Virus genome (UHGV): UHGV-1824706
DNA: 15,677 bases
From: a virus
Reading direction: 5' to 3' (one strand)
Positions 5,349 through 15,677 of this stretch are shown piece after piece. The notes below the pieces were generated by a model that ran no database searches, was not told the origin of the DNA, and saw nothing but the letters and a program-made list of their open reading frames with translations. Each line of letters opens with the position of its first letter. Within the stretch, counting starts at the first letter, position 1. The position numbers were made by a program, and so were the translations under genes.

Positions 5349-6228
5349 CGTGTTCACCCTCACGAACTTTCAGGTAGGTATTATCGTTAAGCAGGAAATC
5401 AAATCCCTTTTTGTGCCAGACGGTTCCGCGCTGATGGTTTGGGCGCTCTTCGAACATCCATCGGCAATTTTCGCCTACGTAGTTCAAATAATTTCTCCAG
5501 TCCTGCATCGTGAACCCATGCCCGTCAAGCTGGCGAGTTATCACTCCGGCTTTGCGCCAGAACGTTCGGATCTGGTTTTTACGCTTGTCATTCAGTGCGC
5601 GGATTTTTGGCGCTTCAGGAAGGATTTCGTGGTAAGCATCGACAACATCCTGACAGCTAACGGAAGGTTTTTTCTTGTCAGACTTTTTGTCTGCTGTGGC
5701 ACTCTCTAATACGTCAGTATTAGAGATATTATTTATATTATTGTTTATGGACAACCGTTGGACAACCGTTGGACAATCTCCGCTGAGAGCCGCGCCATTA
5801 CTGGTGTTTGCGTTGGACAACCGTTGGACAACCGTTGGACAATTTTTTGCCTGAAAATCGTCATATTTAACGATTGTAAACAGGCTAAATTTCTTCCCCA
5901 TCGAGCAAATATTAAGCATACCTTTCGACTCAAAAGTCCGTAATAAGCTCCGAACTTTGTTGTCGGGGATGAATGTTTCTCTGACCAGCGACGGGCGTCC
6001 AGTTATCATCTGACCGCGATCAACAGTTATCGGCCCGATATCCGTATTGACGACAGTAGATTCGTGATTTGCCTTGAGGATTAAGTGAAGCCAAAGATGT
6101 ACTGCCTGAGAGTCCTTATAGAGCCTGCTGTCCATAAACTGGCGGTGTATAGAGACATACCCCATACTGGATGCCTCCTGATGTTGTACAGGGTTATGCC
6201 TGTAATCAGCTAACTTAACGACGCCCAT
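5338..6228 (-). CDS. O-like replication initiator (replisome organiser) with internal origin; start either 6228 or internal ATG near 6165
   Basis: Gene immediately upstream of the helicase with an 11-nt overlap; contains iterons and a duplicated NCPTVVQRLS peptide; both candidate starts have AGGAG-type SDs. Confidence 0.7.
   Translation of the reverse strand: MGVVKLADYRHNPVQHQEASSMGYVSIHRQFMDSRLYKDSQAVHLWLHLILKANHESTVVNTDIGPITVDRGQMITGRPSLVRETFIPDNKVRSLLRTFESKGMLNICSMGKKFSLFTIVKYDDFQAKNCPTVVQRLSNANTSNGAALSGDCPTVVQRLSINNNINNISNTDVLESATADKKSDKKKPSVSCQDVVDAYHEILPEAPKIRALNDKRKNQIRTFWRKAGVITRQLDGHGFTMQDWRNYLNYVGENCRWMFEERPNHQRGTVWHKKGFDFLLNDNTYLKVREGEHDDR
5749..5842. repeat. Origin iterons: two identical 28-bp blocks GGACAACCGTTGGACAACCGTTGGACAA (11-bp unit x 2.5) at 5749-5776 and 5815-5842, flanked by AT-rich DNA
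   Basis: Direct repeats read from the sequence; 66-bp spacing keeps the reading frame; AT-rich stretch at 5706-5748 downstream in gene orientation, as in the lambda ori layout. Confidence 0.7.
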
Positions 6229-6376
6229 GCTTCACTCCTGCTTTGGCTAGTCTGTAAACACCAACAAGGCGCTCTGCGAACGCCCTGTTATTTGCTGCGG
6301 CTACCACTAATCCCTCAGGTGAATCAGGGTGTCGAATCTCTTCTTTTTCCTGGTATTTCTTACGACGTTTTGTCAT
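6215..6376 (-). CDS. Hypothetical small basic protein (53 aa) in the cII-O gap; not in the ORF track
   Basis: Hand translation MTKRRKKYQEKEEIRHPDSPEGLVVAAANNRAFAERLVGVYRLAKAGVKHGRR; SD AGGAG 5 nt upstream of the ATG; stop overlaps the O-like 6228 start. Confidence 0.3.
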   Translation of the reverse strand: MTKRRKKYQEKEEIRHPDSPEGLVVAAANNRAFAERLVGVYRLAKAGVKHGRR

Positions 6377-6410
6377 AATTACTCCTGTGGATTGATCCAG
6401 TCTTTCTACA

Positions 6411-6689
6411 TCAGGCCTCGAAGAATTCGCCGTTCTTCGGGGCTTTTTCTTTTGTCAGCATTCTGGCTACTTTCTTAGCCAGTTCCGCCAACTCCTCGTC
6501 TTCAACACCCCATTCAAGAACAGCCAGAAGCATTCCCATTTTTGGGATGAAGCTGTCTTTCCATCGCGAAATTTGCGATTCATTAATCCCTAACGCGTCG
6601 GCAACCTTTCGCTGACCACGTACAGCAATTCGATTCAGGATGTTGCTTGTAATTGCATTCGCTTTCTTGCGAGTACTTGTAAGTTGCAT
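6411..6689 (-). CDS. cII: CII-type transcriptional activator (92 aa)
   Basis: SQISRWKDSFIPKMGMLLAVLEWGV closely parallels the lambda CII HTH region; position between cro and O; lambda-like 5' UTR AAGGAAATACTTACATATG. Confidence 0.85.
   Translation of the reverse strand: MQLTSTRKKANAITSNILNRIAVRGQRKVADALGINESQISRWKDSFIPKMGMLLAVLEWGVEDEELAELAKKVARMLTKEKAPKNGEFFEA
6416..6453 (+). terminator. Plus-strand intrinsic terminator inside the cII 3' end (oop-like antisense RNA terminator)
   Basis: CCTCGAAGAA-uucgccg-UUCUUCGGGG stem-loop (one G.U pair) followed by CTTTTTCTTTT; orientation is antisense to cII/O. Confidence 0.5.
6667..6687 (+). promoter_or_regulatory. Candidate PRE-like CII-dependent promoter element
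   Basis: TTGC-gagtac-TTGT-aag-TTGC on the strand antisense to the cII start, resembling the lambda TTGC-N6-TTGC CII site at the equivalent position. Confidence 0.3.
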
Positions 6690-6722
6690 ATGTAAGTATT
6701 TCCTTAACTAATAAGAAGTTAT

Positions 6723-6791
6723 GCGCATCAACTTATGCGCGTTGTATTCCCGCATTTCGGCGGGAATGAGGACCATGACTGTTAAAGAGCG
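6723..6791 (-). promoter_or_regulatory. nutR: boxA (CGCTCTTTAAC, plus 6781-6791), boxB hairpin (plus 6746-6767) and a tR1-like hairpin (plus 6723-6740) between cro and cII
   Basis: Minus-strand RNA boxA CGCUCUUUAAC, then AUUCCCGC-CGAAAU-GCGGGAAU; downstream GCGCAU-aaguug-AUGCGC followed by a U-rich tract. Confidence 0.6.
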
Positions 6792-6797
6792 GTGTTA

Positions 6798-6992
6798 CTA
6801 TTTGTTTTTCTTGTTGCTTGGGAAAGGACGAACTTCCTCTCCAATCACACTGCCATCAGGCTTTACCGTAACCATAATGTTACGGCCTGCCAGAATGGCC
6901 TTGCTGATAGCGCACTGGATTACACCAAAGTCACTGGCTGCTTTAGCCTGTCCATGGATTTTGGCGTAATCGGCAAGTGTCATTCGAATCAT
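6798..6992 (-). CDS. cro: Cro-type repressor (about 65 aa)
   Basis: [39 protein letters not shown]...PFPSNKK parallels lambda Cro; start chosen at the ATG with SD GGAG (track ORF begins at an upstream GTG, 6998). Confidence 0.8.
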
Positions 6993-6999
6993 ATGCACT

Positions 7000-7098
7000 C
7001 TCCGTTATTAACCATGAACAAAGAATACTACAGGTATTCAAGGCAATCAATACTTAGGGTATTTTTAGTTTAAGTACCTTAGCTATTAGAATTAAGCT
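7000..7098. promoter_or_regulatory. OR region: divergent PR (toward cro) and PRM (toward cI) with 17-bp operators
   Basis: Operators GAATACTACAGGTATTC (7023-7039) and CAATACTTAGGGTATTT (7048-7064), centres 25 bp apart; PR -35 TTGATT and -10 TATTCT on the minus strand; PRM -10 TAGAAT (7087-7092) about 7 nt before the cI ATG. Confidence 0.6.
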
Positions 7099-7815
7099 AT
7101 GGAAAATAAAAAATCACTGACGACAGAACAGCTGGAAGACGCTAAGCGGCTTAAGGCTTTGTATGAGTCAAAAAAGAAAGAATTGGGAATAACCCAATAC
7201 TCAATCGCTGATGAACTGGGTATCACCCAAGGAGCGGTAGGGCATTATCTTAATGGCAGAAATGCGCTAAACGTTGAGGTTGCATCTGGTTTTGCACGAT
7301 TGTTGCAAGTCTCAATTGCTGATTTTAGCCAGTCAATTGCTGCCAAGGTTGCAGAACAGGCAGAAAGCCTTAAGAGCGATGCCAACGTAAGGTATGCAGG
7401 GGAATACAGAGCAGGAAAGAGGTATCCGGTGTTAAGCAGTATCCAGGCTGGCTCGTGGTGTGAAGCATGCGAACCATACACCATTAAAGACATAGATGTT
7501 TGGCTTGAGTCTGACGCGCATATTCAAGGTAATGCGTTCTGGCTTAAAGTGGAAGGTGATTCAATGACGGCACCGGTTGGGTTAAGCATTCCAGAGGGAA
7601 CATTCGTTCTTTTCGATACCGGAAGGGAGGCGATCAACGGCAGCTTGGTCATAGCAAAACTTTCTGACTCTAACGAAGCAACATTCAAGAAGCTGATAAT
7701 CGACGGCGGAAATAAATACCTCAAGGGACTTAATCCTGCATGGCCTCTCGTGCCAATCAATGGAAACTGCAAGATTATAGGCGTTGCAATTGAGACAAAA
7801 CTCAGACTGGTTTGA
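7099..7815 (+). CDS. cI: CI-type prophage repressor (HTH N-domain plus LexA-like S24 autocleavage C-domain), 238 aa
   Basis: N-terminus LTTEQLEDAKRLKALYESKKKELGITQ is lambda-cI-like; C-domain has the catalytic Ser (EGDSMTAP) and Lys (TFKKL) motifs. Confidence 0.9.
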   Translation: MENKKSLTTEQLEDAKRLKALYESKKKELGITQYSIADELGITQGAVGHYLNGRNALNVEVASGFARLLQVSIADFSQSIAAKVAEQAESLKSDANVRYAGEYRAGKRYPVLSSIQAGSWCEACEPYTIKDIDVWLESDAHIQGNAFWLKVEGDSMTAPVGLSIPEGTFVLFDTGREAINGSLVIAKLSDSNEATFKKLIIDGGNKYLKGLNPAWPLVPINGNCKIIGVAIETKLRLV

Positions 7816-7833
7816 TCACGCAAGGGGGCGCTT

Positions 7834-8202
7834 ATGGTTGGAACCGCTATAGCAAGCTTTTTTGGGATGTTGGCAATCTCGACAATTTACGGCTTAGCGC
7901 ATGCTTTTATTGCGAAATCTCTATCAGAAAAAATAAGCCAGGCTTGGGCGCATAGATCAGCTCGTTTCATGATTCTGGTGATCATAGCAATACAAGGGAT
8001 ATCTGCATTTATCCTCTATGGATCAAGCTTATACCTATTGTATCAAGGCGCGACATTTACGCCTTACACCAGTGATTACGGAACTCTATACGATGGTAGT
8101 GAAGACATCACTGTGGCTTGGATCGTCTTTGGTTTATCTATGGCCGTGTCTGTTGTAGCAGACATCATTAAGGTAATTCTCGTCTTAACCTTCGCTGACT
8201 AA
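7834..8202 (+). CDS. Small integral membrane protein (122 aa, about 3-4 predicted TM helices) co-transcribed downstream of cI
   Basis: Hydrophobic segments AIASFFGMLAISTIYGLAHAFIA, FMILVIIAIQGISAFILYGSSLYLLY, VAWIVFGLSMAVSVVADIIKVILVL; SD AAGGGGG 5 nt before the ATG, 18 nt after the cI stop. Confidence 0.6.
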   Translation: MVGTAIASFFGMLAISTIYGLAHAFIAKSLSEKISQAWAHRSARFMILVIIAIQGISAFILYGSSLYLLYQGATFTPYTSDYGTLYDGSEDITVAWIVFGLSMAVSVVADIIKVILVLTFAD

Positions 8203-8287
8203 CCTATAATCCCGGCAGCAATAGCTATCGGGATCCACTTCACATATCCCGCATAAAAAGCACTGAACAAGCAGACACCGAAAAAAT

Positions 8288-8375
8288 AAATATCCTTTGT
8301 ATTCATTTGCTTATCATTATTTCATCAAAAATAAATACCTCGGGTATTTACACAATAAAATACCTACAGTATTCT
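8288..8375 (+). promoter_or_regulatory. OL/PL: leftward-operon promoter with 17-bp operators
   Basis: Operators AAATACCTCGGGTATTT (8333-8349, near-perfect palindrome) and AAATACCTACAGTATTC (8358-8374), centres 25 bp apart; weaker third site near 8288-8304; -35 TTTACA (8347-8352), 17-nt spacer, -10 TATTCT (8370-8375). Confidence 0.55.
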
Positions 8376-8421
8376 TTAGCCATCAGCAGGACGCTGGTAG
8401 CCAAACGGAACAGATTGGCAG

Positions 8422-8462
8422 GCTCTTTAACATTGATGGGATTGTCCCGCCGAAATGCGGGA
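8422..8462 (+). promoter_or_regulatory. nutL: boxA GCTCTTTAAC plus boxB hairpin UCCCGC-CGAAAU-GCGGGA
   Basis: boxA at 8422-8431; boxB 8445-8462 shares an identical 18-nt core with the nutR boxB. Confidence 0.6.
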
Positions 8463-8775
8463 ACCAAAGAGTAGTTGGCTTTGGGGTGACGTGAAGTGCA
8501 GCTGCACGACGGCAACCGGAAGATAAGCACCCGGCGCGTCACCGCCAAAGTCAATTCCATAGGCGTTATGCAGCCGCCACCATATTCAAGAAAGCTGCAC
8601 AAGAGGTAGGAGGATTTATGTGAATACTTACATTCAGTTGAGAGATTAATTAAATAGAACTGATCGAGCAGAGTCCATAAAGGCTCATAAATGCTCTTCC
8701 ATCCCCGTCTAATTGGCGGGGAAGGAAACAACTTTGTAATAAAAAAATTCCAAAGTTGTTTCATCGGAGGTCAAC

Positions 8776-9075
8776 ATGACAGTAGTCATTACATATCTGG
8801 CTGACGATAACGCCAGAAATCGCCGCAGAGCACGCAGACAGGCTCAACGTGAACAGGCAATGCAAGAGCAGCGACTGGCGCGAAAAATTGCGCTAAAGCT
8901 CTCTGGTTGCGTCAGAGCAGATAAAGCAGCATCACTCGGAAGCCTTCGCTGCAAGAAGGCAGAAGAAGTCGAGCGTAAACAGAATCGTATTTACTACCGC
9001 AAGCCACGCAGTGAAATGGGTGTGACTTGTGTTGGTCGCCAGAAAATGAAATTAGGCAGCAAACCACTTATTTAA
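8776..9075 (+). CDS. N: N-like transcription antiterminator (99 aa) with arginine-rich motif
   Basis: ARM DNARNRRRARRQAQREQ near the N-terminus; C-terminus YYRKPRSEMGVTCVGRQKMKLGSKPLI parallels the lambda N C-terminus; SD GGAGG; downstream of nutL. Confidence 0.8.
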   Translation: MTVVITYLADDNARNRRRARRQAQREQAMQEQRLARKIALKLSGCVRADKAASLGSLRCKKAEEVERKQNRIYYRKPRSEMGVTCVGRQKMKLGSKPLI

Positions 9076-9083
9076 GGTGATAT

Positions 9084-9170
9084 ATGGAAGAAGAATTTGA
9101 AGAGTTCGAAGAGCATCCGCAGGATGTGATGGAACAATACCAGGACTATCCTTATGACTACGACTATTGA
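9084..9170 (+). CDS. orf28-like acidic micro-protein (28 aa); not in the ORF track
   Basis: Hand translation MEEEFEEFEEHPQDVMEQYQDYPYDYDY; SD AAGGTGA; overlaps the start of the ral-like gene, as orf28 does next to ral in lambda. Confidence 0.4.
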   Translation: MEEEFEEFEEHPQDVMEQYQDYPYDYDY

Positions 9171-9354
9171 TAAAAATCAATGGTGTGGACAATTCAAGCG
9201 ATGCAATGGATGCAAGCTGCAATCGGAATGCATGGTTAAGCCTGAAGAAATGTTTCCTGTAATGGAAAATGGGAAATATGTCGATAAATGGGCAATACGA
9301 ACGACGGCAATGATTGCCAGAGAACTTGGTAAACAGAACAACAAGGCTGCCTGA
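9154..9354 (+). CDS. ral: Ral-like restriction-alleviation protein (66 aa, four Cys)
   Basis: MTTTIDKNQWCGQFKRCNGCKLQSEC... matches lambda Ral as I recall it in size, position after N/orf28 and sequence; this is recall, not an alignment. Confidence 0.6.
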   Translation: MTTTIDKNQWCGQFKRCNGCKLQSECMVKPEEMFPVMENGKYVDKWAIRTTAMIARELGKQNNKAA

Positions 9355-9390
9355 TGGTGGCCTTTATTTTCTTATTTGAGAGGAATTAAT

Positions 9391-10014
9391 ATGTCATCAA
9401 TCCGCTTAACTACGAGAATGAAAGAGAAAATCGCTCGTAACGCTTTAATTAAGTCTGGGGTTTTCACTGAACTTGAAGAAGTAACAAAGTTAAAGAACCA
9501 GCTTGCACTTGACGCCAGAGTTATTGCGTTTGGCGGTAAAAAGAAAACTGAGGAAGTGGATCAGTTATCATCCAAGTTGGCAGCTATAAGTGAAGAACTT
9601 GAAAAGATGGGATGTTCACTTTACTCATACGATGTTCGTTCTGCTTCGATTTATCTGACTGTATCTGGAAGAAGGGTTGGCTGGCATTCATACGGAAAAG
9701 GCGGCAACGGTGAAGATATATTGCTCCCCACCCCAGAAAAAGATAAATGCATGTTTGACGCAGAACACGAAATAACAAAAAGGTTTGATGAAATCTGCGC
9801 ATTGCAAAAAAAACTTGAAGCCAAGAAAAAGGATATCGAATCAAATGTATGGGCTGCTTTGAACTCAGTCACAACAGTTAAGCGACTTATTGAAGTTTGG
9901 CCTGAAAGCAAAGAGTTACTACCAAAAGAAGCAGATAAAGCAAGTACAGCACTTCCTGCTTTACGGGTAGAAGATTTGAATAAGATGATTGGACTTCCTT
10001 CCGAGGCCGCATAG
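9391..10014 (+). CDS. Hypothetical protein (207 aa), function unknown; orphan gene in the N-cIII accessory hotspot
   Basis: Start MSSIRLTTRMKEK with SD GAGAGGAA; no motif I can recognise; own terminator immediately downstream. Confidence 0.6.
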   Translation: MSSIRLTTRMKEKIARNALIKSGVFTELEEVTKLKNQLALDARVIAFGGKKKTEEVDQLSSKLAAISEELEKMGCSLYSYDVRSASIYLTVSGRRVGWHSYGKGGNGEDILLPTPEKDKCMFDAEHEITKRFDEICALQKKLEAKKKDIESNVWAALNSVTTVKRLIEVWPESKELLPKEADKASTALPALRVEDLNKMIGLPSEAA

Positions 10015-10030
10015 TCGGCCTTTATTTTTG
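10003..10030 (+). terminator. Intrinsic terminator after the 207-aa gene
   Basis: AGGCCG-catagt-CGGCCT hairpin (the stop codon lies in the loop) followed by TTTATTTTT. Confidence 0.6.
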
Positions 10031-10148
10031 GCATAAACAACAGAATAAACACAGCACTGTGTATTCATTCCAACGAGTGAATACACGGAGCAATGTCGCT
10101 CGTAACTAAACAGGAGCCGACTTGTTCTGATTATTGGAAATCTTCTTT

Positions 10149-10176
10149 GCCCTCCAGTGTGAGGGCCTTTTTATAT
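10149..10176 (+). terminator. Second intrinsic terminator-like hairpin upstream of cIII
   Basis: GCCCTC-cagtgt-GAGGGC followed by CTTTTTATAT. Confidence 0.55.
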
Positions 10177-10238
10177 GCATACCAATAACGCTTCATTCGA
10201 GGCGTTTTCGTTATGCAATCAAACAGAAGGAGCATCCT

Positions 10239-10409
10239 ATGCAACAGTTCGCTATTGCAGGGGCGGCATCGGTTCGCCCTTTCAACCCGATTTTATCGGT
10301 ACAGCATTCACGAAAAAATATTTTAACCGGAGCAGACTTTAAACAACCAAGAATGAAAAGTTTGCTCGAAAAGCTTTGGGATATTTTGAAACAACAAGGC
10401 CGCCCATGA
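10239..10409 (+). CDS. cIII: CIII-like protein (FtsH/HflB inhibitor family), 56 aa
   Basis: MQQFAIAG...SLLEKLWDILKQQGRP parallels lambda CIII (MQYAIAG...LIDILNQPGVP); SD AGGAG; start is internal to the 91-aa track ORF. Confidence 0.65.
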   Translation: MQQFAIAGAASVRPFNPILSVQHSRKNILTGADFKQPRMKSLLEKLWDILKQQGRP

Positions 10410-10576
10410 GTTTTACAGATAACTGGTCAGACGAAGAATTCATTCGTCAGATGAAAGAATTAATCGGTAACGAAGGAGATATGCATGTCACTTGCAACCA
10501 CAGTGAAGGAGAGCAAGTTACAGAGGCGCTTGTACACGCAGCAGGCGTTAATGTATCGCCAGAAGGGAGATCGTGA
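10406..10576 (+). CDS. Hypothetical small protein (56 aa) in the kil position
   Basis: ATG overlaps the cIII stop (ATGA); MSFTDNWSDEEFIRQMKELIGNEGDMHVTCNH...; no recognised motif. Confidence 0.4.
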   Translation: MSFTDNWSDEEFIRQMKELIGNEGDMHVTCNHSEGEQVTEALVHAAGVNVSPEGRS

Positions 10577-14326: not shown

Positions 14327-14518
14327 ATGACCGATACCAGCCTGATTCCTGAGAAAGAAGTGATGAACAAGCTCGGTGTTTCATCACGTCAGACAATCTG
14401 GAACTATACCAAACGGCACGGATTTCCGAAGCCAGTCAGAACCCACCCAAAATCATACCTTCGTGAAGCTGTTGAAGGGTGGATTCTTAACGGTGGCGTT
14501 AATCAGAAATGCTCCTGA
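14327..14518 (+). CDS. AlpA-family excisionase / transcriptional regulator (63 aa)
   Basis: MTDTSLIPEKEVMNKLGVSSRQTIWNYTKRHGFPKP is typical of AlpA/Xis-type HTH proteins; adjacent to the integrase. Confidence 0.7.
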   Translation: MTDTSLIPEKEVMNKLGVSSRQTIWNYTKRHGFPKPVRTHPKSYLREAVEGWILNGGVNQKCS

Positions 14519-15677
14519 TGTGCCAGAACAATTTATCAGCGTGAAGCTCATACGCTTTGCGCTGAGCCTCTATCCAATCGTGTTTATTGTATACGGACAT
14601 TATCCCGCCAAGTTCATGACCGAGCATTCGCTCAGTAACATGAGGCTCGACATTCATCTCGGACAGACGTGTAACAAGCGTTCTTCTGAAATCATGTGTT
14701 CGCCAGTAACCCAGATCCATCCCTCCCCTTATTCTATTTACGAATCGGTTGGCTGCAGCGATGCTGATCGGTTTGTTTATGTCTTCTCCAGGGAAAAGAA
14801 CATCATTGTACGTTGTCATGGCCTTTTCGAGAAAAGGCTTAATTTGTTCGAAGATTGGACGGCGGATAACGTTACCCATCTTGCTATGCTCTTTCGGTAC
14901 GGTCCATACGTTGTCCAGCAGGTCAAATTCTGTCTTTGTTGCCAGCCTAAGCTCTGAGAGCCTCGCCCCCCACAGCATAAGCATCTGATGAAGGAGCTTA
15001 TTTGACGTAGACGCACGGCTTCTTTCAATAGCAAGCCAAATCTTAGCCAGTTCGTGATACGACAGTACCCGATCCCCTACCTCAGCGCGGGAGCCGAAGT
15101 CCCTTGGCTGGATGCTCATAATTGCGCAACTATCTATCAACTGACGTCGCATGCACCAACTTATTGCTGATCTTAGTTGACTTAGCACCTGCCTTGCTCG
15201 GCGTGGATTATCTTTTTCTTCTTCGGTAAGCAGGTCAACCCATTGCTTAACCGTTATAGAAGATGCCGGTCGATTAGGGAAGGCGTCATGCATGCGCTTC
15301 ATAACCGTTGATCGGTAAAGTGCCTGGGTCTTTTCTCTGAGAGTTGTAGAGACGTAGTTGTCGAACCAGTAGTCGAGACACTGGGCGACCGTCATGGAGT
15401 TCTCCACCTTCTCTTCAAAATAGGTGCGTGGATCCGTTCCTGAGAAATAGAGCTTTCGCAAGTCAGCAGTGATCTGTCTGGCATCCTTCAAAGACAGGGA
15501 TGGGTATCGACCAAGCCCAAGTCGATTAGGCTTGCCATGCCAGCGATAGCGGTACTGGAACTGGATGACCCCCTTCGGTGAAATTCGTACGCTGAGGCCA
15601 TCGGCATCAGCCACTTCTTGTGGGCCCGAATATGGTTTACCATAAATACTACGCAGTTTTGTGTCGCTTATAGCCAT
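14499..15677 (-). CDS. P4-type tyrosine integrase (392 aa); start codon is the last 3 nt of the window
   Basis: N-terminal arm-binding-type domain (KLRSIYGKPYSGPQE...GLGRYPSLSLKDAR), catalytic HDFRRT box and LGHELGGIMSVYNKHDW with the Tyr nucleophile. Confidence 0.9.
   Translation of the reverse strand: MAISDTKLRSIYGKPYSGPQEVADADGLSVRISPKGVIQFQYRYRWHGKPNRLGLGRYPSLSLKDARQITADLRKLYFSGTDPRTYFEEKVENSMTVAQCLDYWFDNYVSTTLREKTQALYRSTVMKRMHDAFPNRPASSITVKQWVDLLTEEEKDNPRRARQVLSQLRSAISWCMRRQLIDSCAIMSIQPRDFGSRAEVGDRVLSYHELAKIWLAIERSRASTSNKLLHQMLMLWGARLSELRLATKTEFDLLDNVWTVPKEHSKMGNVIRRPIFEQIKPFLEKAMTTYNDVLFPGEDINKPISIAAANRFVNRIRGGMDLGYWRTHDFRRTLVTRLSEMNVEPHVTERMLGHELGGIMSVYNKHDWIEAQRKAYELHADKLFWHIRSISD

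Follow-up and report, generated by a model that had tools for sequence, protein, structure and literature searches.

What does the small membrane protein encoded directly behind the repressor gene of a lambdoid prophage do? The question is raised by a 122-codon open reading frame (ORF) in the virus genome UHGV-1824706, of which a stretch of 15,677 nucleotides (hereafter, the window) was analyzed. Among the few phage genes that all lysogenic cells express are those of the repressor transcript; Rex, Nun, Hex, and Stk each represent a distinct mechanism of exclusion. The ORF (7834-8202, plus strand; ATG start and TAA stop) is the hkaS gene of phage HK620. Its product is 99.2% identical to the HK620 protein AAK28867.1 and 100% identical to the proteins of mEpX2, HZ41, phi296, and phi367. 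We note that the ORF and its position are already public in the HK620 record (GenBank AF335538), where the product is given as "unknown"; in HK140, mEpX2, HK630, and RefSeq entry WP_000233126.1, it is labelled "hypothetical protein" or "HkaS protein." A literature search for hkaS returned no paper.

The window corresponds to a lambdoid prophage's early region and encodes, in order from the left, Q, the nin genes, a DnaB-type helicase, O, cII, cro, and cI, followed by hkaS, N, ral, an Nmad5 protein, a Rad52-type recombinase, SSB, and an integrase; positions 6367-8555 are 98.4% identical to the immunity region of HK620. Several other features of the window deserve mention in their own right. Two arrays of an 11-bp unit, TGGACAACCGT, are located inside the O-like replication gene (5748-5776 and 5811-5842), where they encode a repeated VVQRLSN peptide and presumably represent origin iterons. 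The 212-aa Nmad5 (nucleotide-modification-associated domain 5) protein (9376-10014, plus strand; E 8e-71), encoded right after ral in the PL operon, belongs to PHROG 1965, to which no function is assigned in that resource; NMAD domains are among the domains of validated defence systems (PMC13092281). In contrast to lambda int, the integrase gene (14502-15677, minus strand; Arm-DNA-bind_3 and Phage_integrase domains) and the PL operon are on opposite strands. The window also seems, as judged by eye, to have a cIII-like ORF of its own.

The features of the immunity region that surround hkaS are as follows:

~6666-6705, plus strand: pRE (HK620 record)
7023-7088, no strand assigned: operators OR1, OR2, and OR3 of the AATAC-N5-GTATT type (HK620 annotation transferred at 98% identity, and repeat search)
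7064-7092, plus strand: putative PRM, read from the sequence (-35 TTTAGT at 7064-7069, 17-nt spacer, -10 TAGAAT at 7087-7092)
7099-7815, plus strand: cI repressor, 238 aa, with HTH_3 and Peptidase_S24 domains (99.6% identical to HK620 cI)
7816-7833, plus strand: spacer with the Shine-Dalgarno sequence AAGGGGG (7822-7828), 5 nt before the ATG at 7834
7834-8202, plus strand: hkaS, encoding a predicted three-helix, 122-aa inner-membrane protein (ORF, PHROG 6534, HK620 record, hydropathy, and AlphaFold2)
8209-8234, plus strand: stem-loop 7 nt past the hkaS stop, about -14 kcal/mol, without a U tract
8287-8375, plus strand: OL3, OL2, OL1, and PL (TTTACA-17-TATTCT, 8347-8375), pointing away from hkaS (HK620 record, scan, and repeats)

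hkaS is a real, selected gene, beyond a chance ORF. The initial annotation described a 122-aa ORF that starts 18 nt past the cI stop and is preceded by a strong Shine-Dalgarno sequence, and this description was confirmed: the cI stop codon TGA occupies 7813-7815, and the spacer to hkaS spans 18 nt. An AAGGA-type Shine-Dalgarno sequence, located in a spacer of 17-20 nt, is retained among the homologues. The homologues at 83%, 61%, 56%, 55%, and 52% identity are, without exception, 122 codons long and align without gaps. The dN/dS ratio of hkaS is 0.13 for the window compared with the Hafnia type and 0.22 for the Salmonella type compared with the Hafnia type, with the synonymous sites being near or past saturation in these pairs. 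Because synonymous changes are spread from end to end of the gene and occur even in the invariant C-terminal tail, the constraint acts at the protein level; a DNA- or RNA-level constraint behind the conservation of the C-terminus was ruled out for the same reason. HkaS diverges much faster than does cI, the amino-acid identities being 52-83% versus 86-96% in the same pairs.

These data bear on the most trivial explanation, according to which hkaS has no function and persists as a passenger only because it is caught between cI and OL. Such a passenger would fit with the rare variants in which the N-terminal part of the gene is frameshifted (P0006, P0007, P0009, and phage HF4s), as well as with the outcome of a comparison of 80 IMG/VR loci, in which no similarity breakpoint was found within 6900-8400. 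Nevertheless, the explanation is essentially refuted by the signature of selection. The low dN/dS, the length and frame, which are preserved even at 52% identity despite saturation of the synonymous sites, and the conservation of both the ribosome-binding site and three sequence motifs (described below) all argue against it, as does the intactness of the gene in 81 of the 81 copies fetched from IMG/VR and GTDB.

The position of hkaS suggests when the protein would be made. A consensus scan of positions 6700-9200 revealed no plus-strand terminator-like site anywhere and no promoter-like site between cI and hkaS, which bears out the earlier statement that no terminator separates the two genes. 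The only plus-strand promoter-like sites in the scanned interval are at 6850-6878 and 8347-8375, the latter being PL. Since hkaS is located between PRM and OL/PL, and PL points outward, the gene could be reached by transcription from two promoters only, PRM in the lysogen and PRE at establishment. We propose that cI and hkaS form a two-cistron lysogeny operon (cI-hkaS), in which hkaS is the distal cistron, and that the hkaS product would be made in dormancy and not in lytic growth.

The layout of the putative PRM adds a detail to this proposal. Its transcript would start at the A of the cI ATG (7099), and the center of OR2 (7056) is at -43 relative to this putative start, as in lambda PRM. The promoter would then combine the geometry of lambda PRM with a leaderless cI message; if the cI message is leaderless, hkaS would be the first cistron of the transcript to have a Shine-Dalgarno sequence.

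At the other end, the immunity transcript likely ends, or is terminated, at the stem-loop at 8209-8234; in the window this end is inferred, as the hairpin has no U tract. Hairpins of other sequence (-18 to -20 kcal/mol) occupy this position behind hkaS in the Salmonella-type and P0012-type loci, and in Buttiauxella L016 hkaS is followed immediately by a canonical intrinsic terminator, AACCCGGA-ctccga-TCCGGGTTTTTTATT. As the hairpins differ between the loci, it is the position of the 3' structure that is conserved and not its sequence. In the HK620 record, a tIMM feature is annotated that corresponds to approximately 8283-8313 of the window; it overlaps OL3, and no hairpin is present there, the sole stem-loop after hkaS being that at 8209-8234; in our opinion, tIMM is misplaced in that record. 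The same record puts OL3-OL1 and pL at window positions ~8310-8381, and the repeat search places the left operators at 8287-8303, 8332-8350, and 8356-8373. Rfam has no RNA family matching within 6000-10500. hkaS is the sole conserved ORF between cI and OL. A 35-aa hydrophobic ORF on the minus strand (8199-8306; MNTKDIYFFGVCLFSAFYAGYVKWIPIAIAAGIIG), convergent with hkaS and starting inside OL3, is probably no gene; in the Salmonella- and Hafnia-type loci, this frame stops after 10-12 codons.

The HkaS sequence contains three hydrophobic stretches by the Kyte-Doolittle method, approximately at residues 3-27, 45-70, and 93-120. The AlphaFold2 model, built from a seven-sequence alignment (pLDDT 92.1, pTM 0.79), places helices at 2-29, 31-38, 41-73, and 89-121, and a small β-hairpin at 78-87. 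The initial annotation had counted three to four hydrophobic helices; by both methods, it is the count of three that stands and the fourth membrane helix that falls away. The first loop is basic (3-5 K/R and 0-1 D/E) and the second is acidic (0-1 K/R and 2-4 D/E) in 31 of the 31 homologues examined, so that the positive-inside rule predicts an N-out/C-in topology. Two loops are thereby delineated:

HkaS residues 28-44: predicted cytoplasmic amphipathic loop
HkaS residues 71-92: predicted periplasmic β-hairpin loop

Thus, the N-terminus and the acidic β-hairpin loop would be periplasmic, while the basic amphipathic loop and the C-terminus would be cytoplasmic. Three motifs characterize the family. 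The first, LSxKISQAWxHRxARF, corresponds to the cytoplasmic loop with its short amphipathic helix; the second, SxYLLYQGATFxPY, covers the terminal part of helix 2 and continues into the periplasm; and the third, DIxKxILVLTFAD, comprises the end of helix 3 and the C-terminus. Within the membrane helices, two polar residues, Q54 and K113, never vary, and D110 almost never does. In a comparison of five divergent sequences, conservation is highest in the cytoplasm-facing parts of the protein and lowest in the periplasmic loop.

HkaS is an orphan in both sequence and fold. Searches of Pfam, NCBIfam, PADLOC, PHROGs (E up to 5), and PDB sequences produced nothing above threshold except PHROG 6534, a family with no assigned function that matches residues 1-122 of 122 with an E value of 2.4e-79. 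This agrees with the initial annotation, in which no motif was recognized. The PADLOC-DB 2.0 defence models gave 0 families at E up to 1, and structure searches with the HkaS model retrieved generic helical bundles only. A cIII-like mimicry by the cytoplasmic loop was also considered and ruled out, as there is no Lambda_CIII match and the window seems to have the cIII-like ORF mentioned above.

The comparison with lambda deserves particular attention. RexB is a small multi-pass inner-membrane protein co-transcribed with cI, and the lambda slot between cI and OL, which holds rexA and rexB, is the same slot that holds hkaS. The parallel with rexAB drawn by the initial annotation therefore holds for the position of the gene; it does not hold for homology. 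HkaS was ruled out as a RexB homologue by an hhalign probability of 0.7% and by the lack of a RexB match in Pfam and PHROGs. By the same hydropathy method, RexB has four hydrophobic stretches compared with three in HkaS. Moreover, RexB has a partner, RexA, in lambda, whereas no RexA-like gene lies beside hkaS, and no internal promoter was found for hkaS. SieB and holins, two other families that the initial annotation had singled out for profile comparison, fared no better, all hhalign probabilities being below 1%: HkaS was ruled out as a homologue of SieB of P22 and lambda (0.1% versus HK140 SieB) and as a lambda S holin (0.1%), the gene being located in the immunity region with no adjacent endolysin.

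Class I holins have three membrane helices and an N-out/C-in topology, and HkaS, which is of similar size, is predicted to share both features. It differs from them in its longer loops, in the absence of a charged C-terminal tail, and in its location outside the lysis cassette; in addition, class I holins are expressed late, whereas HkaS would be expected in lysogeny. One may therefore ask whether HkaS is a diverged RexB or holin-like pore, that is, an ion channel opened by a sensor. Family membership being refuted, this explanation could apply to the mechanism only, and we regard it as highly improbable. The shared rexB slot, the three-helix N-out/C-in topology, and the polar residues (Q54, D110, and K113) that are conserved inside the helices of a small multi-pass protein are compatible with a pore. 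Against it speak the profile probabilities of below 1%, the different number of hydrophobic stretches, the missing RexA-like gene, and the lack of a charged C-terminal tail and of a neighboring endolysin.

The distribution of HkaS is narrow in taxonomic terms and wide in E. coli. A word-indexed search returned 12 HkaS clusters, from Enterobacterales only, and when 1.84 billion cluster representatives were searched exhaustively with an HMM, one full-length HkaS representative and one 44-aa fragment were retrieved. The identities to the window protein are 83% for the Hafnia type, 61% for the Salmonella/Enterobacter type, 56% for Buttiauxella L016, and 52-55% for metagenome-derived sequences; the sources include E. 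coli from animals, humans, and the environment, as well as Salmonella, Enterobacter, Hafnia, and Buttiauxella. The exact protein is present on at least 1000 contigs, and its 90% identity cluster comprises 525 distinct sequences. Among complete E. coli genomes, hkaS DNA was found in 146 of 5426 (~2.7%), at 147 places, none of which is plasmid-borne.

Such a wide spread in E. coli, together with the membrane location and the expected presence of HkaS in lysogens, would be consistent with a lysogenic-conversion factor that alters host physiology, e.g., envelope stress, transport, or colonization, and has no role in conflicts between phages. Lambda offers a precedent in bor and lom, envelope genes expressed in the lysogen. 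We consider this explanation rather unlikely. No transporter, stress, or virulence family scored above threshold; the best sub-threshold match, Cation_ATPase_C (E 0.0035, below the cut-off), is typical membrane-helix noise. Furthermore, homologues of HkaS were found only inside lambdoid immunity regions.

Within these regions, the association of hkaS with the repressor gene is strict. In every fetched locus, hkaS starts 17-20 nt past the cI stop, while the surrounding replication and N genes vary; the cI-hkaS arrangement is present in 80 of 81 IMG/VR loci, the remaining one being cut at a contig end. In complete E. coli genomes, the counts of HK620-type cI are identical to those of hkaS, and the 16 phage records that carry hkaS are the same 16 that carry HK620-type cI. 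Similarity breakpoints in the IMG/VR loci concentrate at 8400-8599 on the right (59 of 80 loci) and at 6100-6700 on the left. Compared with HK620, the window has a 205-bp insertion between nutL and N (8556-8760), which is common to HK140; most mosaic breakpoints fall just before it, at 8400-8599. The linkage itself can be explained trivially, as anything located between cI and OL is inseparable from them without breaking immunity.

The slot behind cI is, by comparison of related loci, a variable cargo site. Phages with cI 58-71% identical (Serratia OS31, Erwinia Eho49, and Cronobacter ENT39118) are without hkaS, and their slot is either empty or occupied by unrelated soluble ORFs; in phage 434, it contains Hex. 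The most informative case, in our opinion, is L016:1833-2869 (Buttiauxella contig CBCPKK010000004.1), which encodes a hybrid cI with a recombination joint inside the gene. Its N-terminal domain is 26% and its C-terminal domain is 88% identical to those of the window cI; the locus has a P22-type cro and TTAAG-type operators, and yet hkaS (56% identical) is kept behind cI. This suggests that hkaS goes with the C-terminal domain of cI and not with operator specificity. Adjacency would be enough to account for this co-inheritance, which also leaves room for a functional link.

The functional link, if there is one, might resemble that of Hex, which excludes P22, stabilizes lysogeny, and inhibits the RecA-stimulated cleavage of the 434 repressor (PMC3564112). 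Like hkaS, hex is a lone accessory cistron on the PRM transcript, directly behind a related cI (C-terminal domain 71% identical). HkaS was ruled out as a Hex homologue by an hhalign probability of 0.07%, and Hex has one N-terminal hydrophobic segment compared with the three membrane helices of HkaS. By analogy, HkaS may tune the stability or induction of the repressor, its cytoplasmic loop or tail contacting either the cI C-terminal domain or a host protease/RecA pathway. Hex, which acts on its own repressor from the same slot, and the retention of hkaS in L016 despite the foreign N-terminal domain, cro, and operators speak for such a role, as does the fact that the cytoplasmic parts are the most conserved regions of HkaS. 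The absence of hkaS from cI relatives whose C-terminal domains are 68-77% identical has also been counted in its favor. Against these points, the location of hkaS right behind the 3' end of cI is by itself enough for co-inheritance, HkaS has no homology to Hex, its cytoplasmic exposure is limited to some 17 loop residues plus a short tail, and a membrane anchor has no obvious use in such a task. On balance, we consider a role in tuning the repressor unlikely.

The reading that we prefer is that HkaS is a membrane effector, expressed in the lysogen, which excludes or aborts heterotypic phages; its probability, in our estimate, is roughly 0.45, so the proposal is a tentative one. In many lambdoid phages, accessory proteins are encoded on the PRM transcript, and the commonest benefit that they provide is the exclusion of superinfecting phages; examples include RexAB acting against T4 rII, 933W Stk against HK97, and Hex against P22 (PMC3564112). 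Exclusion is our best estimate because of this PRM-operon precedent, the predicted membrane location of HkaS, and its independence from virion type. The carriers of hkaS indeed span several virion types, including HK620 (Lederbergvirus), HK140 (Hendrixvirinae), mEpX2, HK630, and Stx2c-converting phages. It should be kept in mind that the precedent is biased, since exclusion is the phenotype that people assay for. The lack of a PADLOC match and of homology to known exclusion, abortive-infection, or holin proteins, the generic helical bundles retrieved by the structure searches, and the trivial explanation for the linkage to cI likewise weigh against this reading.

By analogy with these systems, HkaS would reside in the inner membrane of the lysogen and protect it against heterotypic phages, either by blocking the entry of their genomes or by collapsing the membrane once an infection is sensed. 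Blockers of genome entry are known that resemble HkaS in being small prophage- or phage-encoded inner-membrane proteins, namely SieA, HK97 gp15, and T4 Imm; P22 SieA, for example, is an inner-membrane protein that blocks DNA injection (PMC10883804). A search of HkaS against PHROGs at E up to 5 found no family besides 6534, hence none of the SieA, gp15, or Imm type. These proteins are encoded at other genomic locations and correspond to a given virion type; hkaS, by contrast, is linked to cI and occurs alongside several virion types. As hkaS travels with the repressor gene and not with the virion type, it is closer to Rex, Stk, and Hex than to SieA or HK97 gp15.

Accessory genes on the repressor transcript are a textbook class, for which hkaS is an unsurprising candidate. 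A more novel outcome is conceivable, and we deem it decidedly unlikely: HkaS may be a lone membrane immune protein in which sensor and effector are combined in 122 residues of a fold without relatives or, alternatively, a membrane-anchored regulator, shaped by co-evolution with CI's cleavable C-terminal domain, that links the stability of the repressor to envelope state. If either of these were true, a self-contained immune protein or a CI-coupled regulator would represent a new mechanistic type in immunity operons. If HkaS does not exclude phages, it is one more small prophage membrane protein. The gene is easily testable, as it is present in the laboratory phages HK620 and mEpX2, the latter of which grows on K-12. 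Its footprint extends over approximately 2.7% of complete E. coli genomes, other Enterobacterales, and Stx2c-converting phages, along with these two laboratory phages. Should HkaS prove to exclude phages, it would bear on the prediction of host range in phage therapy and on the competition among Shiga-toxin phages.
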